Origin: Pseudogymnoascus verrucosus
Taxonomy: Eukaryota
DNA length: 35,390 nt
Direction: 5' to 3' (one strand)
Assembly: GCA_001662655.1 (NCBI GenBank)
Contig: KV460225.1
Both the position numbers and the translations under genes were made by a program. Positions within the stretch are counted from its first letter, which is position 1. Each line of letters begins with the position of its first letter. Below the pieces are notes generated by a model. That model was not told where the DNA came from. It worked only from the letters and a program-made list of their open reading frames with translations, and did not search any database. Positions 900-30,632 of the stretch are shown piece after piece.

Positions 900-1098
900 A
901 TACTATTTTCGACAGGCTTTTGTCAGCATATTTTTGCCCCAGAATAGTAAAGAGGTACCCAAAAAAAGTTAGGTACCTGCAATTAAAGGTACCTGACTTT
1001 TTTCAGGTACCCAAAATAAATCAGGTGCCTGCTTCTACAGGTACCTTACATTTCTCCGGTACCTATAAAAAATCAGGTACCTGCTTTTAAAGGCACCT
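900..1098 (+). repeat. Left terminal-inverted-repeat-like module with an array of 9 AGGT(A/G)CC(T)-type palindromes
   Basis: ATACTATTTTCGACAGGCTT (900-919) is the exact reverse complement of 27917-27936, and gapped similarity continues to about 1011. Motif starts are at 953, 971, 987, 1005, 1023, 1039, 1057, 1075 and 1091. Confidence 0.8.
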
Positions 1099-1113
1099 GA
1101 CATTTCTCCGGTT

Positions 1114-1202
1114 CTTCAACTCGTTACAATAGCGCACTTGAAGCGATCCGATGCTCCTCTCTGAAAAAGCACGAATAAACGCCAGATGGATCTCTTTCCA
1201 CG
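1114..1202 (-). pseudogene. 89-bp fragment of a Myb/SANT-domain gene paralogous to 9929-10017
   Basis: 79/89 nt identical to 9929-10017 by hand alignment. It translates on the minus strand as SWKEIHLAFIRAFSERSIGSLQVRYCNELK versus SWKEIHRAFIRAFSDRSIGSLQVRYCNELK. Confidence 0.85.
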
Positions 1203-1210
1203 GCACGCCA

Positions 1211-1237
1211 ATGATGACTAATTGCGTTAGTCATCAT
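1211..1237. promoter_or_regulatory. Perfect 11-bp inverted repeat containing two AP-1/Yap1-like TGACTAA sites
   Basis: ATGATGACTAA-ttgcg-TTAGTCATCAT, about 550 bp upstream of the beta-lactamase ATG. Function is inferred only. Confidence 0.35.
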
Positions 1238-1780
1238 AACCCAGCTGATCAGGCGCGTTTCGGCCTTTGAGATGTGCTGAGCTTTTTCTCGCTGACTCCT
1301 ACTAGCAACAATTTGAGTGCGTTGTAGATGACCCTATATCGGATGCAGTAAGCCTGCATGCTTTAATTGCTTCCAGTATGTACTCACGTATCGTGGAAAT
1401 TTTGCTCTCCCACGCCGCGCACGGTCAGTGCCACTCCCTTTTGAAGCTCGGACGTAACTGTAATTCCAATATAGAAGCAGGTACAGGATTCAGCTGCGAC
1501 AAAATAATATCCCTTTCATTTATAGGTAATATCATCAACAACATGACAACAATGGGTGGAGGATCATTGGATGGAGGATCGACAACCTTAAATGGGGGGA
1601 AGATGGTGCGGGTTTGCGGGATAATCCCGCCTTTTAAAACGTTTCCCCAATTAGGCAGGCCAACACGACAAGTTAAGGCACCAGGAACACCATACTTACG
1701 TGGTCACACTCCACATACATAGCACTCCCTAGTAAATTACAATTATTTCTAGATATATCACAACAATAAAGATCTCTAAA

Positions 1781-2971
1781 ATGGGCCTCGATAACGGCGC
1801 AAGCGCTACTATCCATAAAGTGGAAGAGGCGAACCTCATAGCTGCCTTAGAGGAAGCCGTTCAAGCTGGCCTTCCCGGCATTTCTTGCACCATTGCTACA
1901 AAGAAAGGTGTTATATGGCAGGGCTGTGCCGGAGATGCAGATATCGACACTGGCTCACCCATTGAGGAGCGGCATCTGTTTGGGATCGGCAGCATCACAA
2001 AAGTATTTATGAGCGTCATCGCATTGCAACTTGTCGAGGAAAACCGGCTGGACCTGGGGAGAAATATTGGAAGTTATCTTGATTCAGCCGTTACGGATGG
2101 GATAGCGAATGCAGCGTCTGCAACGATACCTTCGCTACTGAACCACACGAGTGGAATTGCAAGCTGGGAGGACGATCCGGTGTGGATCCGGGAAGGGAGA
2201 GGGCGAGACGTTGACCCGGCGCGGATCTGGGGCAAAACAGATGCCTTAGAATATATTCGTTCCAAAGCCGCTCAAGAAGAGCAATCAATAGCGGACGCCC
2301 CGGTGCCGGGAAAACACTCGTACAGCAATACAAACTTCACCTTCCTTGGCCATGTCATCGAGGCTGTTACGGGAAACCCCGCAGAAACCGAGATCCGCTC
2401 ACGCATTATCAAGCCCTTAAGCCTCGAGTCCATATACCTCGAAGGCTTTGAGAAATCTACAGCGTGCCTCGTTCCGCACCGTTACCACTTCGTCAGCCCG
2501 GAATTCCGCGAGACGGCTGGCGTCTCGCCTCAGTTTCCTTTCGCAAAGCCGGATCTCATTGACGCGAGCAAGTCAAATCTTTCCGTCGAGTGGGTAGCAG
2601 GCGGCATGCTTTCGAGCAGTGCAGACCTCGCAAAATTCTTCTTGGCCCTTCGTGATGGGAGGCTGCTTACGCCGTCCAGTATGAAGCTCATGGCCACCTG
2701 GATACCGACAGGAAGACAGGGCTCAGAAGTTTCCCATGGCTTATTTCGCACCGACAGGAAGAATGGGGCTACAATTGGCCACGATGGGGGCGTGCTTGGG
2801 TTCACGGCGTTTGCGTGGTGGGCGGAGGAGGGCGATTGCGTCGTTACTGTCCTTTGCAATGTTGGGGTCATGCACTGCGGAAAAGAATTGCCCGCGCCAA
2901 TTATCGGACGTGGAGATACGTTTGTAGACTTAGCAAAGGCGCTGGCAAATAGGTACAATCTTGCCTCATGA
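1781..2971 (+). CDS. Beta-lactamase/transpeptidase-like serine hydrolase (class C / D-peptidase-like), 396 aa, intronless
   Basis: SxxK motif (GSITK), LLNHTSG, YxN motif (YSNTNF), AGGMLSSSADLAKF and HxG-like motif (GHDGG). The ORF is uninterrupted. Confidence 0.92.
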   Translation: MGLDNGASATIHKVEEANLIAALEEAVQAGLPGISCTIATKKGVIWQGCAGDADIDTGSPIEERHLFGIGSITKVFMSVIALQLVEENRLDLGRNIGSYLDSAVTDGIANAASATIPSLLNHTSGIASWEDDPVWIREGRGRDVDPARIWGKTDALEYIRSKAAQEEQSIADAPVPGKHSYSNTNFTFLGHVIEAVTGNPAETEIRSRIIKPLSLESIYLEGFEKSTACLVPHRYHFVSPEFRETAGVSPQFPFAKPDLIDASKSNLSVEWVAGGMLSSSADLAKFFLALRDGRLLTPSSMKLMATWIPTGRQGSEVSHGLFRTDRKNGATIGHDGGVLGFTAFAWWAEEGDCVVTVLCNVGVMHCGKELPAPIIGRGDTFVDLAKALANRYNLAS

Positions 2972-4717: not shown

Positions 4718-6044
4718 TCAGGTCTGCGAGCTTTTCCTGCTCGGCAGATCCCAGCTGTTCTCCGTCTCTGCCGTACTATGTTCCGCAGTCCTTTGCCTCA
4801 TCCCCCTCCCATCATCCACACTGATTGTGACCTCTCCCTTAACCTTGATCTTATCCAGCCCATACAGGTTCTCCACGCTGTCTCCGCCCTGACTCCTCCG
4901 ACCGCCGCCTAGCCTACTGGCGCCCCCGGGCCCCGCCTCGACCGTGGTAACCGTCCCAAATGTGTGCCCCTTTCCCATGAATGCAAAGGTCTCCAACCCA
5001 ATATCATCTGACGGCGGGTATGCCGTAAACACAATGTCCGCCCTCGTAGTCGCATATAGCAAGACGTCAAGCCAGCCGTTGCAGGCGATCATCGACCCCG
5101 CCACGCAGAAATACGCCAATGAGACCTCGTTCCCAGCCAACGCTGCTATCCGACCGATAGCGAGTGGCGCAGTACAGATGATATAGATGACGGGGTAGAG
5201 GATCATAAGAGGTGTCGCATGGTGGATCATCTGGCTGGACATATCCTCCCCCCGAGAGCGAGCGCGCAGGTAGATGAAGATGGTGGCGTAGATCAGGACG
5301 CTGCTAAACATGCAGACGAAGATCCAGAAATAGTGAAGCCAAAGACGCTCGTTTTGGTAGGCATCATTAATCCAGCACTTTTGGCCGAGTCAGTTGGGAA
5401 GTAGGATAAGGGGGGTCAGGGGAAATACCCATGCGCTGGCTCGGACGTAGAAGTCATACCGATGGACGAGGGGTCCGATGAGTGCCATCACGTATACGAA
5501 TGTCCAGAGGCCGGCGATGCAGCAATAGAAAGCCACGGTGGGCAATCTATAGTCCTTTACGACGCCGAAGAATGTGTGGACGGCAATTGCGCATATGAAT
5601 ACGCTACTTGCGAGATCTCCAGTGGAAACAAACCTAAGCTACCGTCAGTTTCAACTTCGTCTGATCACTTCACAAAACGAACCATCCTTGCGCGAAACAC
5701 ATCGATGATCCTACTTCAATCGCATTGTGCCTTAAAGCATGAATGTTGAGGACGAAGGCGATCGCTTGTTGGATATCTGCGAATAACATTTAGCAAGAGG
5801 CTTTGAATCGGCATGGAATTCTCTGACCAGCGAAGAGGAGGTTGTAGATAAGGAACAGGAACTGATTTATAGGCCCCTTCACCGCAGATTTGCGCCGCCA
5901 TGATATCAAACGGAACGTTAACCATAGGAATAATGAAGTCGAGCTGATGAAAGACAATAAACCGAACGTCGACACTGGTATCAATCCATGAGAAAGGACA
6001 GCAGGAAGTGGTGACAATGACCTGCTCGCAGCGTCGAGTGCCAT
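4718..6044 (-). CDS. 7-TM G-protein-coupled receptor, Git3/Gpr1-like (fungal GprC/GprD-type), about 391 aa, 4 exons (6044-5828, 5776-5683, 5633-5429, 5377-4718)
   Basis: The spliced translation gives NLLFADIQQA, CFAQGWFVSTGDLASS..IAVHTF, RASAWCWIN, HYFWIF, MILYPVIYIICTAPLA and GWLDVLLY. Three canonical introns give a 1176-nt open frame. Confidence 0.88.
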
Positions 6045-9066: not shown

Positions 9067-9898
9067 TTTTATGTTGATGTGTAGCCATCAATTAGTGTCA
9101 ATTTTCAATTTGAATGGCAATTTACAATACCCTCGTACAGTCCGGTGTACTCATGCCGCCCAAGTCCGAATTTAGTTTGATCGTGAGAATTAATATCCGG
9201 GTTTGAGCTGATAGAAATTGTTATTTTGACAATGTTTTGAATAACTAGCCAAGAAAATAAGCTCGTCATAGAGATCCGATACGAGGCGTGTCGCAAAATG
9301 TGGATGGCGTAAGTAGATCATGCTAGATGGAAGGCTTTGGAGATGGACTATTCAAGCGATGTAGTCAGGTGATCGCGTGGAGACGGGCGGGGACTCGGGC
9401 TCCAGCATAGATCAGCGCGACAAGTATTCGTACAATATGTTGAGGAACGGAACTATGGTTGAGGTGGAGCGGAGATAAGTCTGTCGCGTGCCTGCTGTCA
9501 TCTATACTGGAAAGCTACTGCGACTGTACCATGCAAGTTCCCAGAAACACTCGAACTTGCAGAGTGGTTGGATATCGAGCTCTTGTCAAACAGGCAGATA
9601 ATCTCAACATCTAAACTATACGTATTCAGCATAGCGCCCACGCTTAGTTCCGGTCGATTTCCACCCGTTCACCATCGGTGGTCGCCTCTACCCTGCACTC
9701 TTTAGCTAACCGTTTGAAATCCAGGGCAATATAATTACACATCTTACGCCTTTCCAGTCGATATGGCCCCTCAAGCAAAGCCAAGCGCCAAAAGGTTGGG
9801 CGGTAACCTTCGGCGCCAAAAGACCACGTCAAGCCATCGTTGGTCGTTATATTATATAAGAATTGATAGGGTTTCAATGACTAGGCGGAACTATTATT

Positions 9899-11737
9899 CT
9901 ATTCCTCATCAGATTCAGAGTCTCTGTCCTTCAACTCGTTGCAATAGCGTACTTGAAGCGATCCGATGCTCCTGTCTGAAAAGGCACGGATGAAAGCCCT
10001 ATGTATCTCTTTCCACGACAAGCCCTTCTTCTTGAGGCGCATTAGCAAATTATCTTCTTCCGCTGTATATTGGAGACGTCCACGCTTTCTCTGCTTCTGC
10101 AGATCTGGCCGTGGCCTCTTTGCATGAGATGCGCAAACCTGTGTATGAGCTGATCCTCCAGCTGGTTCCCTGCTAGACGTGGGATTTGATATATGGAGAC
10201 CGATCGATGGTCTGAACGAATCTGGAAGGTCTAACAGCCTGAACTCTAGGTTGTAAGTTGTCTCTCGTCCAATCCTCACGCACTTGAGGAAGCCCTGCAA
10301 AGGGTATTCTTGGTAGTCTGCACCTATTGACTCTGTATCGTCTGGTGAACTTCGAGAACCTGTAGAACCTCGAGTAATGCAGGTCTGGGCTTGGGCTATA
10401 GTGGACGAGCGCGTGTGGACCTTCTTGCGGGTGGCGGTTTCAATCGCGTCAGACTCTCTGCGGCGCCGCTTTTGTTGTATTGGAGGTCGCACATCCTCGT
10501 CCTCGTCATCTTCACTATCCTCATTGTCGTTATCCTCATTATCACTTTGATATGGTTTGAAACTGTGTTGGCGGTCTTGTGAGAGAGGGGCCACAACTAC
10601 GGTCTCGTCTTCCACTCGTTGGTGTGGAATGCTCTCCTTTATTTGCTGGCAGTAGCTAATCGCAGTCTTATCGTCGCTGCTGGTCGCCTCTATGTCGTCC
10701 TCCTGTTCGTCTTCTTGCTCGTTTTGTTGGCACTGCTGCTGTTCTATCGTCTTTTTCCACAATATATCATCAGTCGAAATACCTCGAACTTCTGTATTAT
10801 TTTGGGTTTCCTGGTTCAGCGGATTGCATTGGGAGTGAGCTGCGCTCGAAGGCGGCGACCCTTCTGCTTCTTTTGAAGTTTGTCGTGGTTCATTCTCGAT
10901 ATCGTAGACGTTGCCACAGTCGCACGATCCACCAGCCCTCTCGCGTAGTGGAGAAGGCCTCCTTTCGTCGACTATGGCCTTCTCGACACCCTGGTAAATT
11001 TGATCATGACCCGTTGTCTCAGCTAGCTCAGAGCAACTTGGAGAAGGTCGTCGAACGTGAACAGGGAATGTCGAGTCTAGCTCTGCGAAAGACAGGCGTT
11101 GTTGTCCATCCTTAGAGAAACAATCGGCATTGAGGTATTCCGAGTTTCGAGGAGTGGACGGGCCAAAGAGACTGCTCGGGGTAGAGGCGGTATCTTGAGT
11201 GGCCAGGCCATTCTCGCTCGCATCTTGGTCTCCTATGCTGGCAAGGACATCGCTCGAGGCAACCCTAAACTCAACTTCATCGTCGCTTTCATCGTCGCTG
11301 TCATCTTCGATGATTAGGGGTTCTCCTGCGTGGAATTAGTAACGTGTATAGGCATACAAAAGCGAGCTGAGAAACTTACTTTGATTATTGCCTGGCACAT
11401 AGACCGAGTTTGGGGTTGTGGCATCAGTAAGCAGGCGGCTCTCGTCGATCAGTTGGCTCTTTGAGATATGGAGGGGCTTGTGGTTCTGATGTGGCATCTG
11501 AGGCGTATCTCCGTTTCGAGGAGGCTGGAACAACTCATCAAGAGATGGAAGAGAGTCATCTAACGAGTCGCCATCTTGAACATTCCGTGCTAACTCTGCG
11601 TCTCTAGGTGGTGATATGCTGGGTTGTAGAGACGGTAGGTGCTTGTTCAACACCGACCTCGTCAGCTAAGTGTGTGAGGCCTTCAATGCAGGATTAGGGT
11701 TATAGAATTCAACACGGTTTATATTCACAGTATCCAT
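9899..11737 (-). pseudogene. Myb/SANT-domain protein gene (about 594 aa; exons 11737-11380, 11325-9899) with one in-frame TAG at codon 24; type associated with Starship-like regions
   Basis: C-terminal Myb-like repeat YTAEEDNLLMRLKKKGLSWKEIH...RSIGSLQVRYC, acidic tracts, and DDSLPSLDELF and EYPLQGFLKCVRIG motifs. The intron is GTAAGT...CTAAT...CAG. Exon 2 is fully open. The TAG at 11668-11666 is consistent with CAG->TAG RIP, and a downstream ATG could rescue expression. Confidence 0.8.
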
Positions 11738-11899
11738 GCTAAACAGAGTAGGACGCTAAGTGGGATAATGGTCTTTATAACGTGTCTCTCGAGCGGAAAT
11801 GGAGGAGCTTATATAGAGATTCAGACAGTCGCTCTACACTGTTGCTGTGACTCGCTAGAATCCGCGAGCCCATTTGCTTACTCTATACTCTGTGTCACC

Positions 11900-13718
11900 T
11901 CGTTATTCCCGTGCGCTATAGCTAGGCAGTGAACTTTCCGCTCTAGGCTTGACCTGATTCTACTAACTAGACATTTGCGTTAAAGAGGGACAATACACGT
12001 CGTATTCTAAAGGTCTCTAGTAACTGCACTACTGCAACTTAAGTGGTCTTAAGGGCGGAGTCTTACTCTTAGCTAAGCGTTTAGCACTAGGGTCGGCCCC
12101 TCTACTACTAAAAGGAGGAATCATATCTAGATTGTACATGTTGTAAAGGCAATCGCTTTGCAAGCCCTAACTAACCGCCTAAAGGCTAGATAGAGCGGCA
12201 TCTAAGGTTAGTTGACTCTAACAGCCTAACTCTAATGATTGTCCGCTCTCTGTATCCATTTGTCCGCCATCCTAGTAATATTCCCAAATAAACGCCACGA
12301 AACGAAAGTAAAAGGTAACAAAATGCAACATAGGGATAGTCGCAGACGTAACGGCCTTTAAGAGGGATCTCCACTTCGATCTCGAATCGGCCCTTCTCTT
12401 GAAAACTAGCCTAGACTAAGGCAGAGGTCGCTGCTAGTGCCTATAACTCGTAACGTCGTAATATGTGCTACGCGGCGGTCTGCGCAAGGGCCGGCCACGT
12501 TACTACAAGGCATTTTTACAATTAGCTAGGTCGTTGCACAAGGCACTCTTAAGGCAGATTACGCATGCTACAGTCGTAGGCGGCTTTAAATGTGCGTAGC
12601 AATAGCGAAGGGCGCGAGAGAGGTAGGTTGAGTAGAACGCAGCTTAGCTCGTCCTCGCATCTTAGCCGATCTAACGGCTAGACGTCAAGACGCTTAAAGG
12701 GATCGTTGCCATTGCAAAGAGCTTGGTGGCATAGACGGCGTAGTCATTAGAGGGCGTAACTTGAGGTTGTGGCTCTATAAAGCGTTTATGTGCCACTCTA
12801 GGTTTTCAGCTGTAGCGAGGCCGAGAAGGGCGATCTATTAGGTGGAGCCATTATGTAGTGTAGAGGGGGCGGAGAAGGCTAAGCGTCGCGCGATGAGCGT
12901 AGCAGGTGCAAGAAAGTTAGGAGGGAGGAGCGACAGTAGAGAGGGACAGAGTTAGAGGGAGGGAGTGGCCTCTTTATAGAAGTTGAAAGCGGCAGTAGGC
13001 CTGTGCACGCACCTTCCCTAATTGGGCGGGCGCTAAACCCCGTGCGGCATACCTCGCGACTAAGATTATAACAACTATAAGGTAGGTGTATTAGGTTGTC
13101 TAACAACACTTCCTCTTAGGCTTAGAACATTTAGAGCTATAGTTACTTTAGTATATAAGCTAGTACCTTATAGAAGTAGTGCTTAAAGTGTAACGCTAGG
13201 TCTTAAACTATAAGACTTATAGAGGTTTTATTATATTAGTTTACTTAATAGAGGAGGTAGGAGATTAGACACTAAAGGCTTTTATAAAACACGTTATAGT
13301 ATATAACAAATACTATATTAAGTTAAGCATAAAGCTCCTATCTAAGAAATAACTATCTACTTATATAGTAGCGTTATACTAAAGGGAATAGTTAGAATAG
13401 TAGACTTTCTAACTATTCTTACTATTCCTACTAATCTAATTATATATATGTCCTATAAGAGGTGTTATACTTATTATAGGTACTAATTCCTATAGGTGCC
13501 CTTCTAAGGAGGCACCTTGCTCTATATAGGTACCTTTCCTAATAGGTACCTCTCCTTTACTAGGTACCTTCTAAGAAAGGTACCTTTTCCTAAAGGTGCC
13601 CTTATTAACTAAGCTACTTATAATCTCTATATCTATTTCCTACTACTAATTAGCTATAAGCTATTTTACCTTATTATTCTATCTTATAGTATATAGGTTA
13701 TATGTTTTAGCTATAATA
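11900..13718 (-). mobile_element. Truncated, RIP'd LTR retroelement (family A, probably non-autonomous): 5' LTR 13189-13718, PBS/gag-leader shared with the Gypsy element, then an unrelated internal region; left boundary approximate
   Basis: 13070-13188 aligns with 22300-22417 (leader and first ~22 gag codons). The LTR runs TG...(C/T)A and is 530 bp. No gag core, pol or second LTR was found to the left. Confidence 0.7.
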
Positions 13719-15551: not shown

Positions 15552-16490
15552 TATAACGCTAGGTCTTAAACTATAAGACTTATAGAGGTTTCGTTACGTT
15601 AGTTTACTTAATAGAGAAGGCAGGGGATTAGACATAAAGGCTTTTATAAAACACGTTATAGTATATAACAAAATACTATATTAAGTTAAGCACGAAGCTC
15701 CTATCTAAGAACTATCTATCTACTTATATAGTAGCGTCATGCTAAAGGGAATAGTTAGAATAGTAGACTCTCTAACTATTCTTACTATTCCTACTAATCT
15801 AATTACATATGTGTCCTATAAGAGGTGCTACACTTATTGTAGGTACTAATTCCTATAGGTGCCTTTCTAAGGAGGCACCTTACTCTATATAGGTGCCTTT
15901 TATAATAGGCATGTAACGCTAGGTCTTAAACTATAAGACTTATAGAGGTTTCGTTACGTTAGTTTACTTAATAGAGGAGGTAGGGGATCAGACACTAAAG
16001 GCTTTTATAAAACACGTTATAGTATATAACAAAATACTATATTAAGTTAAGCACGAAGCTCCTATCTAAGAACTAACTATCTACTTATATAGTAGCGTCG
16101 TGCTAAAGGATAGTTGGGATAGTTAGATATATGAGAATATCCCAACTATCTAACTATCTATTACGTAACATCCTACAACCATAGTTAATAGCGCTAAACC
16201 ATAATTGCTACGGGGCCTACGTAATTCCTAGGAGTGCTCTCGCTCCTAAGACTCTCCCTACTCCTAGACCCCCTAGTCCTAGAAGTCCTATACTTCCTAG
16301 AACACTTATTCCTAGAAGTCCCCCTAGTCCTAGGTGCCCTACTAGCCCTAGGATCCCTATAGAATTCATAGCCATAACACTAGGTCCCTCCTCTAAGGCC
16401 TAGTCCTATAGGCCTACTAACTAAGGAAATCGCTAACTACTTAAGTAGGGTAACGCCTACTTATTTTACCTAGTAGGTTGCGCTACCATC

Positions 16491-17042
16491 ATGCCTTCTA
16501 ACAAACATACTAAAATTAAAGAACGTCAACTCCTAGCTAATTGTATTAAAAGAAACGGAATCCTAATGCCGCTATGCTCTAACTGCATCTATAGCAAACG
16601 CTCCTACGTCGTCGCTCCTAGGCATCGCTGATGTAGTGAATGTACTCGTTGTAATTCTAAATGCAACGCCTACAGCCCGTCTACTACTAAATGGGAAAAG
16701 CTTCGTAAGGAAGAAGAGCGCCTAGAGGCAGAAGAGGAAGCTGCTACTGCTTAAGAGCAGGAGGCCTACGCTCGCTACATGCGCCTTTAAAAACAGTAAA
16801 AGGCCCTTAAGCTTTGTAGCGCTAAAATGCTTCGTTGTGGCCTTAAATCCCTTGATGAGCTAGAGGAGGCTAAGGAGCACAATCGACACAAAGCCGAATC
16901 CCATGCTTATCTCCTTAGTCCATCTACAACTAATCCTAAAATCGTCAGTTCTACACACGACCCCTACTAGGCCCTTTCCCCTAGATTCTTCAATCGCATA
17001 GGTGCTAACGGTAGAACTCCGCTAACAACTCTAGGCAGCTGA
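16491..17042 (+). pseudogene. Antisense extra ORF of the chromovirus: Zn2Cys6-like Cys cluster plus coiled coil (184 codons, RIP stops)
   Basis: ATG 16491 to TGA 17042 in one frame. It reads MPLCSNCIYSKRSYVVAPRHR*CSECTRCNSKCNA followed by WEKLRKEEERLEAEEEAA...LKSLDELEE, and it overlaps the pol 3' end. Confidence 0.7.
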
Positions 17043-20000
17043 GGTTCCCCCTCAACTCCTACGAGTTGTCTATAGGTTTGTAACCTTTCCATTTAATTAA
17101 AAACTCTTCTTAGCGTCCTACTAACCTTCTGTCTAGGATTGCCTCGACCTCATATTTAATAATTTCATTTTTAGGCTAGAGTTCAGTATCGGTCGCAATT
17201 AGGGCCTCCCCTCTTGCTAGTTCTAATAATAAGACATAAAACACTAGGTAGAGTTTAGAGTTCTTAGGTAGCTGCAGTCTATAATTAACTAAGCTAACTT
17301 TCTCTAATATCTTAAATGGTCCTAGTTTCTTAAAGTCTAACTTCGTACTTAGTCGTTTCGTTTTAATGTGTTTCTAGAGTAGGTATACTTTATCCCCCTC
17401 CTTAAAGGCAGGTTCCATACTACGCTTCCTATTTGCATATGTAGCAGATCGTTCATTTAAGAATTAGATGTCCGTTATAAGTTGTTTGTAGAACGATTTT
17501 AGTTATTCTACTACAATTAGGGCTTGTTTAGCTTGTGCTTCATCTAGTCTTAGTTGCCTATATGCTTCTAGCTAGTAGCCGTAATTAGCAAAGAACGGTA
17601 AGACTTTCGTTGCTTCTGCCATCGCGCTGTTATATGCAAACTATGCAATGGGTAAAATCTAAACCTAATTATCCTATTAATGATTGACATAACTTCATAG
17701 GTACTATTTAAGGGTTTGATTTAATCTTTCTATTTAGCCGTCTATCTAGGGGTAGAAAGCTGTTAATAGCTTGTGATTTGTTCCTAGTAGAGCCATTAAC
17801 GATTTCTAGAATTTCAAAGTGAAGAGCTTGTCTCTATCTAAGATGATTTCTTCTAGCATCCTGTAATCGGCTAATATAACTTAAATAAAGGTATATGTAA
17901 GCGCTTTAGCGTCGCTAGCTTCTAGATATAGTACGAATTTCCTATACTTCGTGAGTCTTTCCATTATAACGAGGATAGAGTTGTATTCTACTCCTGTTAA
18001 CAGGTCTTTAGAGGGTGGTAGCTTAACGATGAAGTCTAAAGCTACTAATTTCTATGCTCCTTTTAGTACTAGTGTCAACTTAAGTTGTCTATAAGGTAAG
18101 TGCCTATTAGATTTTGACTTACTACAAATGTTGCACTCTCTTACTACTGTTTCTACCTACTTCCTTATACCTAGGAAGTAGTAGTGTCTAGTGATTCGTT
18201 TAAAGGTTCGTGTTACTCCCTAATGACTGTGTGCTAGCAACGAGTGTTGTTCTTGTACTAGCAGGCGTCTTATTTAACTTAGGACATACACTAATCCTTT
18301 ATAACGGATTAATCCTTATTCGTTAATAGCAAAGTCGCCTTCAACTTTAGTTAAGACTCTCTTTATGCATTCGTCTATTGCATAAGATTTCTTAAGTCTT
18401 TCCTTAAGTTCTATATCTTTAACGATGGAGATCGTCGCTAGCAACTCGTTATACTGTATTCCTACGTCTGTTTTCTTTAATATTGCTCTAGGTCTTTCTT
18501 CCTTTAGGCCAACGTAGTTAGTCCTTCTACTAAGAGCATCTGCTCTTACATTCTTAGAGCCCTTGCAATAGGTTATTGTGAAGTTGTAGGCTATGAGGGT
18601 TTCTGCCTAGCAGACTTGTCTATAGTTTAGAACCTTAGTTGTAGTGAAGTATATAAGGTTCTTGTGATCTGTCTACACTTACACTATGTAGGTAGATCCC
18701 TTAAGATATACGCGCTATTACTTAAAGGCAACGACAATAGCTAGTAGCTCCTTGTTATAGATGTTATAGTTAAGCTCTGTAGGTGACAGTTTCCTAGAGT
18801 AGTACACGATTAGTTTAAACTTACCGTTCTTGCCTAGTTGATTTAGACATGCTCTAATCGCAAAATTAGAAGCGTCCGTCTTAAGGACAATCTTCTTTGT
18901 AGGGTTAAATGTTGTAAGGATAGGTGCCTCTATGAACTTCGTTTTAAGTTCCTAGAAGGCAGCCTCTGCTTTATCTGTCTATTTAAACACGAGATCCTTC
19001 CTAGTGAGCTCCGTAAGTAGTTAAGCTACCTTAGAATACCCTGTAATGAACTAACGGTAGAAGTTAGCAAAGCCTAAGAAGGCTTGTACTTCTTTAACCA
19101 TAGTTAGTGTTAGCCATTCCAACACTACTGTAACCTTTGCTTAGTCTATCTTAATGCTGTGCATTCTAATAATGTAACCTAAGAATTCGACTTAGTCCTT
19201 ATAGAACTTACACTTCTCTAGCTTTAATAGTAGGTTGTATTCCTTTAGCTTCTAGAGGACAAGTTTAACATGCTAAACATGTTCGTCTGTGTTTGCTAAG
19301 TATACTAGTATATCGTCTAAGTAAACGATGGCGAATATGTCTAGATACTTGTGTAAAGCATCATTCATTAAGCGTTGCATAGATGTAGGGGCGTTAGTTA
19401 GCCTAAAGGGCATGACTTGATATTTAAATAGACTATAGCAGGTGCAGAATGCTGTTTTCCACTCCTTGCCGTCAGCTATCTAGATTAGGTTGTACGCGCT
19501 ACGTAGATCTAGCAGTCCTTTATTGTTATGTTGTTTAATGCTCGATAATCCACATAAGGTCGTTTACTCCCATCCTTCTTAGGAACCCATAACATTGGGC
19601 TTCCTATAGGAGATTTAGATGGTCTAATAAATCCCTTCTTAAGGTTATCGTCAATATACTCCTTTAGTAGTTTTAACTCATCTGCTAACATCTAGTATAT
19701 TAGTCTAAACGGCGGACTCTTTCCTTCTTCTAAGGGTATTACATAGTCCTATAGTTAGTGCTTAGGAAGTGCCTCGTTCTTAGGGCCTTCCTAGAATAGC
19801 TACTCGTATTCCTTATACTCTACTAGTATACTCGTTAGTAAGGGTGCTAGGGCTAGGTTACTAGGCTCTATAGAGGTTGCACATACCTCACGTTGGCCCT
19901 AGGAGGATTTCTCCCTTTGTGGCGTGTCCGTTCGTTGTTTACATACGCACTAGCTCATTACAATTTTCTCGTTCTACTAGTTGATCTAGGGGTTGTGTTT

Positions 20001-20390
20001 CCTAAGCTACAGCACTCTAAGGATACATGCATAATTGTCTATGTATACAATGTCGAATTAGATCGTTTCCTTGTGTCTACGTAGTATGACCATCTCTAAT
20101 GGGACCGTTTCATAGGTTACCATTCTGTTGTTAGTTGAGATAGGCTCTCTATCTACAACTATTAATAGGTAAGGGTTGGCTCTTAATTGCATCTTAAAAC
20201 CTTGCGTGTCTGCTACTTTCTTTGTCATAAAGTTGCCCGTTGCTCCTAAGTTAATCATTACTTAGAGATGTCGCTTTTGTACCTTAGCAACCACATATAG
20301 CTGCATGCTGCCCTCTGTAGCGCATAGCTGTTTCGTACTAGGCCTCTTCTCGTTGCTTGCTAGTAGCCTACTGTCGAGGACTCCTAGTTT
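16990..20390 (-). pseudogene. pol: pol polyprotein (protease, RT, RNase H, integrase, chromodomain), RIP-broken
   Basis: MI(N)LGATGNF protease, [25 protein letters not shown] and YLDDI RT, TDAS RNase H, FYP*IDG integrase and EYEVEAIL...FLIKWKGY chromodomain at about 17000-17160. Boundaries are approximate. Confidence 0.9.
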
Positions 20391-22369
20391 TTTAACTTGT
20401 TAGAGGGAGAATAGTATTCGTCGTCCTCTGTTAGCAGTCCTAATGAGGGCGGTCCTTCTTGTCTTACCGCCTCTCTTAGTAGGTGTAGGTATTTCTCGTA
20501 TACCTATTCACTCTTTATAGGTAATTCTCCTTTAGACTAACTACGTCTAAGGGCATAAACCTATTCTGCGTCTTGAAAGTGTATCTTAGGTAACAATCGA
20601 GGGAATAGCTAGTGCTAGTGTTTCTTTCTCTAGTAGAGTTTGCAGTCGTCTTCACTATAGTACTCCTAGTAGACATATGCATGCTAGGGATAATTAGTCT
20701 CTGTTGCATCTGCCCTTACTAATTCCCGTTGTCCTTTTACCCATTTGCTGTCTTCTCTTAGAGGCGTGGTAAACGTCTCTAATTGTTCTATGGCTCTCTG
20801 TTCTAGTCAGGTAGCAGGTCTTGTGTTTTCCCGTTAAATTATGTTTCTAGCTTTCTCGTCGTACTTCTTTAGGGCCCTCTTTCTATCCTAGTAGTAAAGT
20901 TTAACGCTTTTCATGCTCTTTAGCGTAGCCATATACTCGACATCCGTTTGTAGTCTTCCTACTTCTTAAACTAGGAAGTCTTCTATCTCTAATGTCGTTC
21001 TAAGCTATCTAAGCTCGTTAGTTAGTATGTCGTAGTATCTCTAGAGGTCGTCCCTATAGTCGTCTACCTTACATTCTAACGGGAGTCCCTATAATAGGTC
21101 CCTATAGGTGCCCTTAAGCGTAGGGATTCTCCTTAGAGTGCTAGGCTTGTCTTGTTCGTCCTTAATCTTCAAGTAGGCGTGTTTTGCTATGCGTCATACT
21201 ACGCTCTTACACTGTGGACTCATTGGTTCCGTAGGTGCAAGCTCTTTAAAGGTTCCTTATTCTGAGACAGTAAGAGATTCCGCCTCTAATTCCTCGTCTA
21301 AGCTTTCATCTTCTAGGGTGCTATCGCCGTTAATTCCCTAGTCCTGTTTGTTTACAATCGTGGCGTTTAACTGCATTCCTAGGGCGTTATAGCCTCCTCG
21401 GCCTTGCTAGGTAGCGTTGAGTTGTTTGCTAAATTTACGTCTACTGTTCCCCTTCTTTAGCTGTCTGCAGTCTTAGGCCATGTGGCCTAGTTTGTTGCAG
21501 TTGAAGTAAAGTCGCTCCTTAACTTACTTGTCCTTTTTTAGGTCACGGGGTCGTCTAGGTTTAAACGTGGCATTAAGTTCCATTAGGTCTAACTAACGGT
21601 TGTCTTGTAGGTGTTGTTCCCGTCGTTTGCCTTCGTTCCCTTAGTAGGGATAACTTTTCTTAGGTTTGTTATAGGTCCGTCGTTCCCTCTAGAATTCGTA
21701 TAGCCGATTGTCGATTTAGACCGTATACTCGATTAGCGTCACTATGTCCGTTAGCTGTTGCTCTAAACGGGTAAGTTCTATACATACATAGCTCTTTAGT
21801 CTACGTTAGTAGTGGCTAATAAGCGCGCTAGCGTCCTATCCTATCTAGTTGCTATATCTCTAGAATTCTGTAGAGTACGTAAGGGCGCTACCCGTCTACT
21901 TAAGCGCAAACAGGTGGTCTACTACAGTCTTGATTTCATTAATATCTCTAAACATACGTTAGATCTCCTTACAGAATCCTTTCTAGCTGCTAAACATGGT
22001 TTAGGTAGTTGCTATGCTTCCGTTAGTACTTTCGTGTTAGAAGTAGTCCTTAAGGAAGGGTTCGATTTATTAAAGGGCTTCTCCTCAAAGGTAGGACGAA
22101 GTCTATAGAGCATAGCTTTCTCTAGTAGGAAACTTGTCGTCATTAAAATGCTAGTACAGTTCGACCTGTAGTAGGAATACTTCAAGTTCCTTTCGATTGC
22201 TAGAATAGGTGTTAGGGAGCTTAACATGTAAGGCCTCCCTAAGTTCCGATGTTGCGGGCGCGTTAGGCATTTCTTTGTTCTTAGTAGTAGGTCTCTAAGA
22301 CGACTATAGGGTAGGTGTATTAGGTCGTCTAACAACACTTCCTCTTAGGCTTAGGACATTCAGAGCCAT
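20384..22369 (-). pseudogene. gag: gag (662 codons, RIP stops) with CCHC zinc knuckle; -1 slippery site A AAA AAC immediately before the stop
   Basis: ATG 22369 is in frame with TAG 20386-20384. The knuckle (C>Y)FNCNKLGHMA*DC is at about 21470-21510. AAAAAAC is at 20393-20387 on the minus strand. Confidence 0.85.
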
Positions 22370-23782
22370 AGTTGCTTTAGTGTATGAGCTAGTACCTCGT
22401 AGAAGTAGTGCTTAAAGTGTAACGCTAGGTCTTAAACTATAAGACTCATAGAGGTTTCGTTGCGTTAGTTTACTTAATAGAGGAGGTAGGGGATTAGACA
22501 CTAAAGGCTTTCATAAAACACGTTATAGTATATAACAAAATACTATATTAAGTTGAGCACGAAGCTCCTATCTAAGAACTAACTATCTACTTATATAGTG
22601 GCGTCGTGCTAAAGGATAGTTGGGATAGTTGGATATATAAGAATATCCTAACTATCTAACTATCCATTACGTGACATCCTGCAACTATAGTCAATAGCGC
22701 TAAACCATAATTGCTATAGGGCCTACGTGATTCCTAGGAGTGCTCTCGCTCCCGAGACTCTCCCTACTCCTAGACCCCCTAGTCCTAGAAGTCCTATACT
22801 TCCTAGAACACTTATTCCTAGAAGTCCCCCTAGTCCTAGGTGCCCTACTAGCCCTAGGATCCCCGTAGAATTTATAGCTGTAACAAGGCACTTCTCTTTA
22901 GCTAGGTACCTTCTAAGAAAGGTACCTTTTCCTAAAGGTGCCCTTATTAACTAAGCTACCTACAATCTCTACGTCCATTTCCTGCTGCTAATTAGCTACA
23001 AGCTATTTTACTTTATTACTCTATCTTACAGTATATAGGTTGCATGTTTTAGCTATAACACTATACTAATATAAGGGATTTAACTTACTAGACAGTTTAT
23101 AGCTATAACAGTATACTATAAATAGCTTTAATTACACGTTAATAGGTGTTATTATTAGCCTTATAATATCCTTACTAGGTAGCTTAATTAGCATTAATAA
23201 CGTTAATGATCCTATAAATTAACACTAAGAAGTGGCTGCCTAGATTGGTTTTAATTACAATAACTCTTTAATGTAAGCATTCTAGTTAGATGTTCACTTT
23301 AAGCAAGAAGGTTTAAGGGATGAGGTTATAGAATAATTTGCTATCTAGTGTAGTTAACTACAATGATATAGAAGGATAAGATTTATTAGTCTAGGTAGAT
23401 AGAAGCCTTATATTTATAGCTGTAGTTACATCCTTAGTTTAGCGCTAAGCTCACTAGCGTAGGCATTAATACTAAAACTATTCTCATTAGTTTTAGTTTT
23501 TAGACCATTAAATCTAGAAGAAGAGAAGAGCATTCGATACGTACCTAGTACGTACTAAGTACGTACCGAGTCTGTTAAAGTGTTGTGTAGTAGGGGTGGC
23601 ATTCTTAGCTTAGCGCCTTGACCCACTAGTGCAGGGACGACTGACATTAAATACCCTAGCGTCCTATTTGTTTAGGTGTTTAGACCATCATACTAGCGAA
23701 GCTACATTTAATGTGGACTATTCCATTATCTGCAACACGGTTAGCTAGGGAAACACTACTAGTTAATAATTAATCTAATAAG

Positions 23783-25987
23783 ATGCTATCTTCCGATCAA
23801 GGCAAAGATTCACCGAATATTTCGAGCACCGTAGATCTAGACAAGGTCTAGCCTGTTCCTTCGTCAGCTTCATTTAATTTAACACTACTAAAGTTCACTT
23901 TAGGCGCGTCTTCCATTTGTACTCCGCCTTCCTTTGGTACTCTAGTGGCTGCAGCGGTATCTAGAAGAACATCCAGCTGACCGTGATGTGGTCTTGAAAG
24001 CGGTTACAGTACTAAAGCTCCCCCTAACTCCCGCCTCAACACCCTCTAATACCGACATACCTAGCGAGCCGGCTCCTGTCCCAATACCCTCCTAGATTAT
24101 CGAACAACAAGTCGAAAGTAATAGTGATCGCGACGTTGATCAGCACGCGAGCCCTTTTATCAAACCTCACGATCAAAGTTCACGAGCCGTTGATAATCAG
24201 GACGAGAGCCTCTCCGTCGATTCTAACGACCATGGCTCACCAGCCACACAGCAAGGGGGCGGTCGTGCAGTCCCACCATACCAAGACTATGTCGAGGACG
24301 CAGAGGACTCAAGTGGCGATTATCAGCCTCCAGCGAACCTCGACGATTGGACTCCGAGTTGTGACGGCGATGATAGTCAAGATAGTAAGCTGTTAAGGCA
24401 GGGCGCAACGTCATCAATATCACAGCGGTCAAATAAATCCTCTAAACGCAAGCAAAACTTTAGAGACCGCAAAGATCCAAAACGTTTGCAGACCAAGGCT
24501 TTAGATGGAACGGAGGTATACCTTGGAAGCCCTCAACTCTCAGAGACTTACGCACCTGACCGGAAAGATGAGATTCACGGCCAGCGACCTAACACCTCAG
24601 ACGCTGGCCAGGACTCGGGATTTTTAGCGTCCTTAGGCACCTCGCCACCATCGCAAACAACACCAGAGAAAACTTGCGAATCGCGGCAGGCACCCACCGG
24701 ACATAATCCATCAGCTGAACGTAACATCGCGTTCGCGGATTTGCCGGCGGATTTGCGGGCAAAGGCACAGATGATCGGGGATATTAAGACACAAGGAATC
24801 GCGTGGCATTTCTTCAACTACATAGAGTCTTAGTCAACTAACTCCAGTAATGCTGAACCGAATCCAGACGATGACGTGCCCTCAACTTCATCGTCAGATC
24901 AAAGACTCAGGGAACTCAAAGTCCGTATTATTACACAGGAGAAAGCAGAGAAATCCGCCTAGAATATGAAAATAGTATCACGTGTCTTCAGGAGAGTATA
25001 TGTAGCGGAACTAGCAGGTAAGTATAAAGAGGAGACAAAGGCCAGAAACGCTGAGCGTAAAACGAGAAGTAAGGAAAATTTGCCCGTCTTATCGGTCAAG
25101 AATAGGTATACGAATCTCCTCTTCCCCGAAACAATAACGTGTAAGGGTGATGAGCAGAGCAAAAAGAAAGAGAATGGCCCGCGGAAGCAGGCTAAAGGAA
25201 AACTCGAGTACTGGTTAAAGTTAGGGAGGTTCCTTGCTGAGATTGCCAAGCGCTATGGGATTGGCATTATACTTCTGCTTCCAACGAAGCTAACTGAAAA
25301 AAAGTAAGTTGCCTCCTAGCTAAGCTCGTTGATATGTTCAGCTGATTAAGATTTAGTATTCATAAATTTCCTCGGCATCAGATTAAGCCCTTTTTAGACT
25401 ACATCGACTTTCTTCAACCAGGTTTGAGGGAGGATATCAGCGGCTTGTCTGCCCTTCTTAAGAGCGTAGTAGAAGTTGGGCTACCATCACAAAGGATAGT
25501 GCTTGAGACATACTCTTCCGACCAATTATCAGAGCTTAGCAATCGGCCCTTGAAGGAACTATTCCAGTTTTGCACTGGCAGAGACTCTCAGCGAGTTTAT
25601 GCGGTGGCCGGCCCTCCGCTTGGTTAGGATCCATCGAATAGTACTTACAGTGAGTACCCACGTCCACCTGCACCTCAGGAAGGATTTATTCATCCCTTGA
25701 CAACTGATCAACAAGTCGACATGGCTGTGGAAGAGTCGTTTTGTTCACAGAATGGTGATTTATCTGTGAAACCACTGGACCATTATGACGGAGAACCCCG
25801 TTTAGTAAACACATCCATAATCTCGAATCAGTTGAATACAACCGGCGACATGTCTACATCCGTAAACAACAGTAATTTTTCAGTACAGACTGTGGATATG
25901 CCACAAGAGATGGGATGGTCAGGTAACGATCAGGATATTAGGACAGTGAACCCGAGGGATCTGCAATTGCGAGCAGCGTCGTTTTAG
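23783..25987 (+). pseudogene. Large hypothetical protein gene (about 690 codons, 2 introns) inactivated by at least 6 RIP-type stops
   Basis: One frame links the track ORFs 24486, 24966, 25424 and 25697 across single TAG/TGA codons, plus intron GTAAGT...CTGAT...TAG at about 25304-25356. It has a disordered acidic N-half and a helical domain ending LAEIAKRYGIGIILLLP. The 5' exon is less certain. Confidence 0.72.
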
Positions 25988-26784
25988 TACAAACAATATC
26001 AGAACACAGTCATGTTTCCCTTACAGTACCTGCAAAGCATTCAAGCATTCAGTTTTTGGCTCTTGCGTAGGTTATAATGATGTCATTGATGGATGTCCAT
26101 TTTGATCCTTGTGATAGACCAAGGCGACCCTACCCTGCAACCCTTAACTCTTGGCGCAGCGTCAATCTCCACCTCTAAATTTGATCCCTCGAGAAAAGCG
26201 ACGAAAAGATAGAATAGCACTGCAGCCGGTTGTGGCTCGATGACCACGTAACGAAAAATAAGGGCATCAAAACAGCCCGTCTTTGTCCTGCCAAAACTGG
26301 AACCCTCAGCCAAATCTTACTGGTGCCGTTTCTCACGCCCTTCAGTATCTCAGTCTTGGCATCTTGCAGTAGTGGAGGTCGGGAGCCCAGCGGGCGTGAG
26401 ACCGGCGGGCGTGAGAGTAGTGGACCTCGGGAGTATCCCAGCGGCCCTTAGTGGTCACCATTGGGACTAGACTGAGTCCTTGTAGTGAGAGTAGTAAAAA
26501 TCCAGCACGTGAAATGTGAATCATTAGCAAGGAACTGCACAAGGCGGGTGGAGCAATACCTGTCAGATGGGAGGTTCCCAATGAATGCTTGATATATACT
26601 AACGTCCATCCATACGTAGCGAGAAACCAACTGTGCCGAGAAAAATGATAGGTAACGTCGGTCCCTAGGTGAAGGAAAATCCACCGTGTAGGAAAAACTT
26701 GTCCAATATGAAAAGGGATTGCTTGATAATTTGAATCTGGAAGCAATCCGTAGCACGTAGTCACGTGGCTTCGTGATATGCTAG

Positions 26785-27010
26785 TACCTTTGGGGCTACG
26801 CTACCGTCATGTTATTTGTACCGTCATATTATTTGTACCGTCGTTTTGTTGGTAGTGTACTGTTCTCTGCACCTATGGGAATGAGCTACCGTGAAATGCC
26901 AGGTACTGTAGAGTCTTCTGCACCTTTGGGAATGAGCTACCATCATGTTATTTGTACCGTTGTTTTGTTGGTAGTGTAGTGTCTTCTGCGCCTTTGGGAA
27001 TGAGCTACCG
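26785..27010 (+). repeat. Complex tandem repeat (GTTATTTGTACCGTC, TTTTGTTGGTAGTGTA, 3x TCTGCRCCTWTGGGAATGAGCTACC)
   Basis: Direct inspection shows modular duplicated blocks. Confidence 0.8.
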
Positions 27011-27356
27011 TTTGGCGGTTTCTATTGTCAGAGGTTCCATTTCCTTTAAGAGTCACGTGGGTGCATGGTAAAAGTGGCAACGGTATCATGACATTGCAGA
27101 GTAATTTGCAACCAGGATTGCTGGGGCATCTGGAGAGTAATATAGCTAGAGAGTGACATTAAGTATAAGAGAGCCATAATTTTCTACGTGACTGTTACAG
27201 TAAAGAAACCTTCTCGAAAATGCAGGTGAGGGATCATTTGGCACTATTTCGGCTAATCCGAATACTGATCAGCAGGGGTCGAACAGATCTGATTGAGCCA
27301 GGGTTGCGTCATCCCACCTTCTTGGCGCCGTGGCAGTCGCATTATCCACACCTAGT

Positions 27357-27702
27357 TTATTCCTTCTCTTTACCCCCTGCTTGCTCTGGATCTTCTGCAT
27401 TGCGTTTCCGTTGATATTTCGCGTCAGCGTTATGTAGCAACATACTTATAGGGATTGGAAACGAAGTCATCTTGCCAGTACTTAGTAAATACCTTCAAAA
27501 TCAGGAGTGAACGTACGATTTCTTTCTTGGATGGTGGAAAACGTGGGTTACCAGGAGATACATAAGTGTAATAACGCCCCTTCTAATAGATGATCAAAGC
27601 AACATCTGCGCCGTATAATTCCCCATACTCATATACCTTGTTGGTCAAAGTGCTTCTCCTTCGAGATGCATTCTGGCTTTGGCGTTTCCGTACGTTGCAC
27701 AT
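27357..27702 (-). pseudogene. Small MADS-box (SRF-TF)-like gene, one intron, RIP stop and a frameshift
   Basis: MCNVRKRQSQNASRRRSTLTNKVYEYGELYGADVALIIY*KGRYYTYVSPGNPRFPPSK, then intron GTACGT...CTAAG...AAG, then MTSFPIPISMLL...KEKE*. It is missed by the ORF track. Confidence 0.75.
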
Positions 27703-27837
27703 GTTGGGATAGAGAATATGATGCCTCCTGTAATTTGAAGACTTGTAGTTCGATCAAGATAGTCGCAGAGTGCCACTGGCATTTTACAGCCGGCAAGGCT
27801 ATTTAAAGTGTTTCAAAGAGATCTACTTCGATATAGC

Positions 27838-27936
27838 AGGTACCTGAAAGCAGGTACCTTTAAATGTAAGTACCTGACTTTTTGTGGGTACCTCTTCATT
27901 CTGGGGTGTGCTGACCAAGCCTGTCGAAAATAGTAT
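27838..27936 (-). repeat. Right terminal-inverted-repeat-like module with 4 AGGTACCT-type motifs
   Basis: The reverse complement aligns with 900-1011. Motifs are at 27838, 27852, 27868 and 27886. Confidence 0.8.
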
Positions 27937-30605: not shown

Positions 30606-30632
30606 ATCAATACAGGCCGATATTCTACCTCT

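Follow-up and report, generated by a model that had tools for sequence, protein, structure and literature searches.

Introduction

CACTA/EnSpm-type and some other terminal inverted repeat (TIR) transposons carry a short terminal inverted repeat that is followed, at both ends, by 100 to 200 bp with many copies of a short motif. In this study, we analysed a stretch of 35,390 nucleotides from Pseudogymnoascus verrucosus (assembly GCA_001662655.1, contig KV460225.1), here called the window, in which two modules of similar architecture begin at positions 900 and 27,936, face each other, and enclose 27 kb of DNA with several genes. With moderate confidence, we read the two modules as the ends of one old, non-autonomous and now immobile class II TIR element.

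A class II element that encloses ordinary genes has been described in fungi under the name ToxhAT. It is a single-copy element of 14 kb with TIRs of 74 bp, a TA target site duplication (TSD) and passenger genes, and is probably non-autonomous (PMC12506042). ToxhAT carries ToxA in Bipolaris, Parastagonospora and Pyrenophora, and is itself carried in a Starship. Its empty sites with a single TA are proven and the whole 14 kb is common to species (PMC12506042).

ToxhAT appears to be the closest analogue of the module pair. The two each occur in a single copy per genome, have several non-transposon genes between their ends, have no working transposase of their own, and lie in a repeat-rich accessory context. 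Both have long TIRs (74 bp in ToxhAT; here an inverted similarity of about 100 bp and a perfect tip of 17–20 nt), and a TA duplication is compatible with our locus as well. Unlike ToxhAT, our locus yielded no empty site and no second unit copy, and we detected no remnant of a Tc1-like transposase. Furthermore, our locus is twice as large, about half of it consisting of nested repeats, and its modules contain subterminal arrays of the octamer AGGTACCT, none of which were seen in the available description of ToxhAT.

Two other systems are relevant because of a Myb gene between the modules. In PIF/Harbinger elements, the transposase is paired with a Myb-like protein that binds the element ends (PMC12256816). 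In some Starships, a gene of the MYB/SANT type lies near the edge opposite the captain gene and TIRs flank such elements (PMC12256816), and genes for ferric reductases (FRE) and NLR proteins are found alongside captains (PMC9156397). Among the papers listed by our literature search, none dealt with Pseudogymnoascus transposons or with a Myb-chromodomain repeat.

Results

Structure of the end modules

The two modules share a perfect inverted identity of 20 nt (ATACTATTTTCGACAGGCTT), located at 900–919 and 27,917–27,936. An inverted-repeat search and alignment both place its start at 900 and 27,936, as the sequence-only reading had claimed. Further inwards, a gapped inverted match extends over 900–1011 versus 27,936–27,839, with 79.5% identity over 112 alignment columns (E 1e-19, blastn within the window); beyond the perfect tip, the similarity drops to about 75%. 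The Smith–Waterman score of the module pair was 115, versus 16.7 ± 2.4 (maximum 26) for 200 shuffles. In contrast, the 200 nt outside the tips scored 16 (shuffles: 15.8), and the 600 nt further inward of the modules scored 21 (shuffles: 20.2). Since the flanking and inner stretches are at shuffle level, the similarity of the modules has an abrupt start at the tips and stops near 1011 and 27,839. Hence, the earlier description of about 80 bp of gapped inward similarity with arrays, and none outside, holds as well. The pair thus has TIRs that are sharply delimited on their outer side, as in class II elements.

The right tip region falls 10 nt short of the left one owing to gaps, of which the pair alignment has four. 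A scan of the window for further copies of the tip (with up to six mismatches) yielded none beyond chance level, and there is no other degenerate tip in the window that could be a nearer partner for either end. An exact-pattern scan of metagenome contigs for the tip (23 specified bases, one Y and a gap of 1–2), which requires near-identity, gave 0 matches. A single inversion that split a small element was rejected as the origin of the pair by reasoning: it would have given ends in direct orientation, whereas the ends are inverted.

Inward of the tips, both modules contain copies of the palindromic octamer AGGTACCT. Each 52-bp unit of the left array holds three of these octamers, or variants that differ at one position, at a spacing of 16–18 bp, which gives 9 octamers altogether. 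At the right end, no tandem array was found by Tandem Repeats Finder (TRF). In the whole window, 38 AGGTACCT-like octamers were observed versus 17.4 ± 4 expected. The combination of a short inverted tip with subterminal motif arrays at both ends is a feature shared with CACTA/EnSpm-type elements.

Arrays of AGGTACCT with the identical spacing of 16–18 bp are also found in the long terminal repeats (LTRs) of local gypsy elements, at 13,510–13,585, 15,857–15,898 and 22,904–22,927. We considered whether the modules are fragments of LTRs and rejected this for the tips, whose scores against each of the three LTR copies, on either strand, resemble those of shuffles; the octamer arrays of the modules alone score slightly higher against the LTRs. 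The presence of these arrays in two unrelated mobile elements suggests that one common DNA-binding factor may recognise both.

Copies of the modules in related genomes

Public runs were identified with 25,400–35,390 of the window, and we compared four of them (X1, X2, X20 and X6) over positions 1–13,200, with copy numbers taken from the depths of Logan contigs, not from assemblies. X1 is identical to the window (a contig spans 53–4740 with 0 differences) and X2 is nearly identical (a contig spans 53–1156 with 2 differences); both contigs bridge 899/900. The runs X20 (organism K) and X6 (organism C) come from species other than that of the window. All four runs hold the module.

In X1, two contigs cover position 920 with a depth of 424.2, and one of the two (233.5) has a 1-nt deletion. 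This deletion in the second X1 contig is the difference that separates the right from the left end in the alignment. Likewise, two contigs cover position 920 in X2 (depth 82.9, of which 34.2 with the 1-nt deletion). The surplus depth of X1 in the bin 881–1320 corresponds to about 100 nt of one additional copy, which matches the right end in length. Going by the contig depths, the two ends in the window are the sole module copies in the X1 and X2 genomes. In a genome of about 33 Mb, these sole two copies thus lie 27 kb apart with their tips facing outward. We estimate the probability that two unrelated solo ends would be placed in this way by chance, in about 33 Mb, to be on the order of 1e-3 to 1e-2.

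The other two species have more copies. In X20, three contigs cover position 920 (depth 799.9), two of them with the 1-nt deletion. In X6, where the flank 441–880 is single copy (depth 132.6), about four contigs span position 920 (752.2), three of which (610) have a 1-nt deletion at 921. A further four X6 contigs, clipped at 942, have an overhang (CAATAGGCTTAGCTAGCAAATTTTTGCTAG) in which the homology can still be recognised. Contig depths therefore give about 5–7 module copies at 920–942 in X6 and about three in X20, such that end copies are dispersed, as in class II elements. The modules constitute a low-copy family of transposon ends that is dispersed in related species. A low-copy family with a boundary near 900 in several species has the appearance of a transposon end, rather than of a chance inverted repeat or a private promoter. 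The sharp boundary, the perfect tip, the subterminal arrays and the dispersed copies in X20 and X6 all support the earlier idea that the modules act as transposon ends.

One X20 contig covers 587–1111 at about 92% identity (31 mismatches, 10 gaps), and hence includes the left junction and the full three-unit array. Its similarity halts exactly at 1111, where the fragment of a Myb unit begins in the window. This implies that 1110/1111 is a breakpoint, that the junction is old, and that the interior has been replaced since. X20 and X6 showed no cover of 1321–3960, although the module is present; here and below, missing cover in these two runs means none at ≥80% identity in the contigs, which is not proof of absence. 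The unit as a whole was thus not seen to be shared, and a second copy of the whole unit was not found in the four runs compared. The earlier proposal that 27 kb moved as a unit did not find support, given that no empty site was found and that the interior of X20 differs from 1111 inward.

An alternative is that the modules are not the ends of one insertion. They may be remnants of two nearby copies (e.g., after local re-insertion with loss of the inner ends), or aberrant transposition or repair may have produced an inverted copy of one end, with ordinary accessory, repeat-rich DNA between them. The modules are just 79.5% alike with four gaps, and their arrays differ in length (3.1 units versus about one). 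Furthermore, there is no TSD, conserved host-like genes lie between the modules, and the region has been heavily rearranged, with breakpoints at 1110/1111, 1209/1210, 9892/9893 and 13,070/13,071. This alternative, however, needs two extra losses (of both inner ends) or an unusual duplication, it must explain why the sole two copies in 33 Mb have their tips facing outward, and the perfect 20-nt tips suit a functional pair. We therefore regard two separate ends as rather unlikely.

Target site and transposon class

No TSD of 2–10 bp flanking the 20-nt repeat was found, with 0–4 matching positions per length. The lack of a convincing TSD in the sequence-only reading is thereby borne out for lengths of 2–10 bp outside the repeat. 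The dinucleotide TA at 901–902 and 27,934–27,935 would suit a TIR of 17 nt, yet it is palindromic and inseparable from the inverted identity. A target duplication, if any, is possible only as the TA within the repeat.

We compared the ends with the features of known transposon classes. For CACTA/EnSpm, the tip reads ATACTA with TACTA in the place of CACTA, the 3-bp flanks are TAT versus GCT, and no matching transposase domain is found inside. The earlier suggestion that TACTA is a CACTA tip altered by repeat-induced point mutation (RIP) thus comes without the accompanying 3-bp TSD. For hAT, the 8-bp flanks CTCAGTAT and GCTTTGCT are equal at 1 of 8 positions. Long inverted ends, as in Mutator-like elements, are present, and flanks of 9 and 10 bp are equal at 3/9 and 4/10 positions. 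For PIF/Harbinger, there was no DDE domain and no 3-bp TSD, and the Myb open reading frame (ORF) comes from an independent repeat.

A Pfam scan of 259 of the 315 window ORFs of at least 45 aa detected no transposase and no DUF3435 domain. Outside this domain scan were 37 ORFs in 900–27,936, of which 11 overlap the beta-lactamase ORF and 26 lie in the retroelement nest, as well as AT-rich stretches filled with stops. With no transposase gene in the scanned ORFs, the element is at most non-autonomous, and the claim that neither a transposase nor a captain lies inside stands for the ORFs scanned.

The Myb unit is an independent repeat

The Myb gene between the modules had been regarded as a gene of the element or as a Starship-type gene. 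Instead, it is part of an independent repeat of 3.2 kb. The unit contains an intronless ORF (11,737 to 9902) that encodes an acidic protein ending in a Myb/SANT domain. The copy in the window is a pseudogene with an in-frame stop at 11,336–11,338, and it is cut 6 nt past the stop codon. The protein has 55 homologues at E ≤0.001 of 590–790 aa, with many paralogues per Pseudogymnoascus genome, and the long forms add two chromodomains. The depth of the Myb unit is about 20–45x in X20, 10–17x in X6 and 2–4x in X2, with loose ends at 9896–9899.

We also found the Myb unit in eight metagenome loci (L001–L008), of which L003 and L004 are identical, leaving seven distinct loci. All eight match the window only over 9893–13,070 and the 99-nt fragment at the left array. 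Their Myb units sit among ordinary genes (pirin, ribosomal proteins, WD40, APH and SDR). No transposase was found near the Myb units of these eight loci, and neither a AGGTACCT array nor a tip lies beside any of them. The module as the natural 3' end of the Myb unit was likewise rejected, because in the eight loci the units run 50–230 nt past the stop codon into other sequence. Copies of the Myb unit that are truncated at the 5' end also occur (e.g., L003:10725–11103).

The 99-nt fragment next to the left array is 87% identical to 9926–10,024 and 92% identical to L003, and belongs to another subfamily than the copy at 9893–13,070. The two 99-nt pieces differ by 7 transitions and 6 transversions, and the shared states match L003a. 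These substitutions and the different subfamilies rule out that 1210–9892 was inserted into a single Myb unit with a 99-nt target duplication. The distinct subfamilies imply that the region took up at least two Myb units, in addition to two gypsy elements. A perfect 11-nt hairpin palindrome (ATGATGACTAA-CGCAA-TTAGTCATCAT) lies at 1213–1240, 3 nt inward of the end of the fragment at 1209, and may be the footprint of a rearrangement.

The locus shares with PIF/Harbinger elements a Myb-domain ORF between inverted ends with repeated palindromic motifs. Unlike in those elements, this ORF belongs to a separate repeat that occurs elsewhere without module ends, and neither a DDE_Tnp_4-type domain nor a 3-bp TSD was found.

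A Starship origin, in which the pair borders or sits within a small degenerate Starship without captain, seems extremely unlikely to us. The locus resembles Starships (PMC9156397, PMC12256816) in being of kilobase scale, gene-carrying and bounded by inverted repeats. The Myb/SANT fragment lies 0.2 kb inside the left end, and SesA and FRE fragments, i.e. FRE/NLR-type pieces, lie just outside the right end. However, the scanned ORFs contain no match to the DUF3435 captain, and the Myb sequences, including the fragment at the left edge, come from a stand-alone 3.2-kb repeat that is found among ordinary genes in the eight metagenome loci. Moreover, the Myb fragment reads outward, whereas the MYB genes of Starships read inward by our interpretation of PMC12256816. 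The SesA and Ferric_reduct pieces (28.8–29.9 kb), which recall the accessory genes of Starships (FRE, NLR, PLP and DUF3723), are outside the pair, and long, array-type ends are not mentioned in the accessible parts of the Starship descriptions.

Genes between the modules

The features of the window are listed in Table 1. The proteins encoded in it are most similar to those of Pseudogymnoascus species, a genus of the Leotiomycetes. The gene list of the sequence-only reading was upheld in part: a beta-lactamase and a MADS-like gene were confirmed by their domains, the latter as a pseudogene, while the signal of the G protein-coupled receptor (GPCR) is weak and below the cut-off, and the Myb gene turned out to be a pseudogene of a dispersed repeat.

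Table 1. Positions of the end modules, genes and repeats in the window.
Feature	Position	Strand	Description
Left tip	900..952	+	Perfect 20 nt at 900–919; alternative reading A + TA + 17-nt TIR from 903
Left subterminal array	953..1112	+	3.1 copies of a 52-bp unit (TRF score 208, 81% matches)
Myb-domain fragment, 99 nt	1111..1209	-	C-terminal coding part; abuts left array
Beta-lactamase / DD-carboxypeptidase-like serine hydrolase ORF	1736..2971	+	PF00144, E 1e-45
ORF with weak GPCR signal	4721..5389	-	GPR_Gpa2_C, E 3.9e-4, below cut-off
Myb unit copy	9893..13070	-	Dispersed 3.2-kb repeat; 1.3 kb upstream DNA with TATA box
Ty3/gypsy nest, AT-rich, RIP-like	13071..23060	-	GC 0.29–0.44
5' LTR and 118-nt leader fragment	13071..13716		Abuts 5' end of Myb unit
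LTR pieces	15551..15909		Within gypsy nest
Full-length degenerate gypsy element	15911..23060	-	LTR pair 15912–16379 / 22418–22885, 94.9%
Hypothetical gene	24096..25987	+	In-frame stops; family without known domain
SRF-type MADS-like gene	27330..27753	-	ATG at 27705; SRF-TF, E 1.3e-6
Right subterminal motifs	27838..27893	-	Four AGGTACCT-like octamers, about one 52-bp unit
Right tip	27885..27936	-	Perfect 20 nt at 27917–27936

The beta-lactamase-like hydrolase has homologues of 396 aa, with identities of 98%, 87% and 71%, followed by ≤54% including bacteria; only 3 of the 120 homologues listed reach at least 71% identity. The hydrolase region (1761–3080) has a depth of 0 at ≥80% identity in X20 and X6. 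The gene is accessory, with a patchy distribution. Its close relatives among the homologues listed come from a few Pseudogymnoascus sources only. The hydrolase is about 50% identical to bacterial DD-carboxypeptidases (Rhodothermales, Gemmatimonadales) and about 50–53% identical to other Leotiomycete proteins.

Further ORFs are located at 3.4–9.2 kb, parts of which are present two to three times in their own genome. The depth of X1 is 506–578 over 4401–6160, or about 2.5–3x in its own genome. The GPCR-like region also occurs in X20 and in X6, the latter with a contig over 5318–5972 at 97.6% identity (655 nt, 16 differences). In X1, X2 and X6, contigs connect 3384 to 4682, with 19 other letters in place of the 1297 nt skipped, and also connect 4681 back to 3342. 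These joints at 3342–3384 and 4681–4740 suggest a short repeat or a paralogous arrangement elsewhere in the X1, X2 and X6 genomes.

These genes bear on the alternative that a cargo-carrying TIR element, either the 27 kb or the roughly 13–17 kb left without nested repeats, transposed as a whole and, much like ToxhAT, brought in the hydrolase, the GPCR-like gene and further genes. No copies besides the paired ends are found in the genome, and the beta-lactamase-like gene, which is patchy in Pseudogymnoascus and without cover in X20 and X6, lies just inside the left end. In addition, TA is found at both ends, ToxhAT is a precedent for such an element, and gene types associated with Starships (SesA and ferric reductase fragments at 28.8–29.9 kb) adjoin the pair, ToxhAT itself riding in a Starship. 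Several results argue against a cargo vehicle: the data compared revealed no empty site and no second unit copy, and the left junction is common to X20 while the interior differs from 1111, which suggests that the site is old and fixed and that its interior turned over later. Moreover, the GPCR-like region in X6 (97.6%) and X20 looks like an ordinary conserved gene, and several inner genes are pseudogenes. Transposition of the whole stretch as a unit is therefore unlikely. We are equally doubtful about the bolder form of this idea, in which the pair would bound a cargo-mobilising TIR transposon, ToxhAT-like and about twice as large, of a new family characterised by a tip of 17–20 nt, AGGTACCT arrays and possibly a TA target, that moves the hydrolase and other accessory genes between Pseudogymnoascus genomes, while an autonomous copy with a transposase recognising the palindromic octamers would persist in some species.

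The hypothetical gene at 24.1–26.0 kb had no match in Pfam and no match in Atlas. A 93-aa piece of it matched 42 representative clusters, with a best identity of 76%. Of 12 homologues scanned, 11 are without Pfam family, and the twelfth (a weak match, E 3.2e-4) has bacterial-type domains.

The MADS-like gene reads inward, 133 nt from the right array. This copy is a pseudogene, in which TAG replaces a Q of the intact homologues of 117 aa. Its homologues comprise five matches with 83–92% identity in Pseudogymnoascus species, never two per named strain.

The positions of these genes could also mean that the modules are now mainly regulatory, i.e. transposon-derived clusters of putative AGGTACCT binding sites upstream of inward-reading genes, whose pairing is without transpositional meaning. 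The right array is located 133 nt upstream of the MADS-like ATG, and the hydrolase, at a distance of about 670 nt from the left array, also reads inward. Furthermore, the identical octamer occurs in arrays with a spacing of 16–18 bp in the local gypsy LTRs, and LTRs often bear promoter or enhancer sites. A promoter role, however, leaves the sharp and perfectly conserved 20-nt outer tip unexplained, and an antisense Myb fragment separates the hydrolase from the left array. About 5–7 module copies are present in X6, versus five MADS-like proteins found overall rather than in X6 itself. A mainly regulatory function is therefore very unlikely in our view.

Nested and neighbouring mobile elements

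Within the gypsy nest, minus-strand ORFs at 17.2–19.7 kb matched RVT_1, RNase H and integrase SH3/chromo domains. The breakpoints of the region are at 1110/1111, 1209/1210, 9892/9893 and 13,070/13,071, the last of which is the boundary between the Myb unit and the gypsy nest.

Just outside the right end, a split SesA domain (NACHT/NLR-type N-terminal; E 4e-14 and 3e-9) is found at 28,807–29,298, and the minus strand of 29,411–29,889 contains ferric reductase fragments (E 7e-8 and 1e-4). Further downstream, at 30,993–33,204, lies an element of 2.2 kb with inverted ends of 101 nt that are 100% identical and begin with TGTTCC. Each end contains three copies of a 36–37-bp repeat (CCGGCCCAACCACCAAC...), and the element is possibly flanked by a TATA duplication. 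Its interior contains a remnant of an integrase core (rve, E 1.7e-7) and weak matches to zinc-finger and CXC domains. We take this element to resemble Ginger-type DNA transposons, and it looks recently active. For 25,400–35,390, 9–14% of the sampled words also occur in each of 17 further runs, among which are metagenomes from soil, freshwater and sediment as well as several other coded organisms.

Outside the left end, the outermost flank (1–440) is present about twice in its own genome and 2–3.6 times in the other runs. Over 1–440, a second X1 contig (depth 232) lacks 2 nt at 142 and contains an extra G at 200. Part of the left flank is thus itself a low-copy repeat.

Discussion

The structure of the ends, the copy numbers, the nested repeats and the lack of recognisable transposase domains form the basis on which we interpret the two modules, with moderate confidence, as the ends of one old class II TIR element that is non-autonomous and now immobile. 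From these observations we infer a single insertion, a cut-and-paste mechanism and a later loss of mobility. The perfect tips amid an otherwise drifted remainder count for one element, as does the outward orientation of the sole two copies.

The element would belong to a low-copy family in Pseudogymnoascus-type fungi, characterised by a tip of 17–20 nt and arrays of a palindromic octamer. Judging from this architecture, a transposase encoded elsewhere would bind the AGGTACCT sites in the subterminal 50–200 bp, and would cut at the conserved tips of 17–20 nt; the target duplication, if made, would be TA. The copy in this genome would be left without its partner transposase, and hence be a relic. 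The 27 kb of today exceeds the element that was originally inserted, owing to later growth of the interior. At least 13 kb arrived later, comprising the two gypsy insertions, the copy of the Myb unit and the 99-nt remnant of a second Myb unit, and rearrangements have left breakpoints at 1110/1111, where the left array ends inward, and at 9892/9893. The remaining 13 kb or so contains one intact accessory gene (the hydrolase), further ORFs and the hypothetical and MADS-like pseudogenes, which may be cargo or may have arrived later.

Several points weigh against this interpretation. The copy numbers come from contig depths in four runs over part of the window, as described above. The module copies of X6 without and with the 1-nt deletion are in a ratio of 1:3 instead of 1:1, and the indel lies in a run of T, such that it may be a doubtful mark of left and right ends. 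The flank 441–880 is present about twice in X20, so that the X20 copy may be a paralogue instead of an orthologue. In the same run, the remaining 824 nt of the contig that ends its match at 1111 were unlike 1112–13,200 among the pieces and joints listed. No empty site was seen: X1, X2 and X20 all bridge 899/900, and with the left junction present in all three, any mobility is putative. The comparison of the flanks of the 20-nt repeat also yielded no TSD. Finally, the interior contains ordinary-looking genes (the GPCR-like gene and the hydrolase). Ordinary genes do not insert themselves into transposons, and their position therefore requires capture before the insertion or a later rearrangement.

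The sequence-only reading had proposed a giant cargo element of an undescribed type. Its paired TIR-like ends, the lack of a transposase and the accessory hydrolase are retained here. We depart from it in three respects: ToxhAT is a precedent for such an element, about 13 kb of the interior is secondary, and movement as a unit did not find support.

For the analysis of similar regions, the results imply that a Myb gene is no marker of an element in these genomes, where it is a high-copy repeat. The putative common factor behind the AGGTACCT arrays in unrelated mobile elements would be worth identifying. As a probable relic, the locus leaves current knowledge of gene transfer in fungi unchanged. 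If the modules do belong to one element, it would be the second conventional inverted-repeat transposon in fungi that encloses ordinary genes, beside ToxhAT, and the first such case in the genus of the bat white-nose fungus. It would also illustrate the decay of an element of this kind, which fills up with retroelements and other repeats yet keeps recognisable ends.

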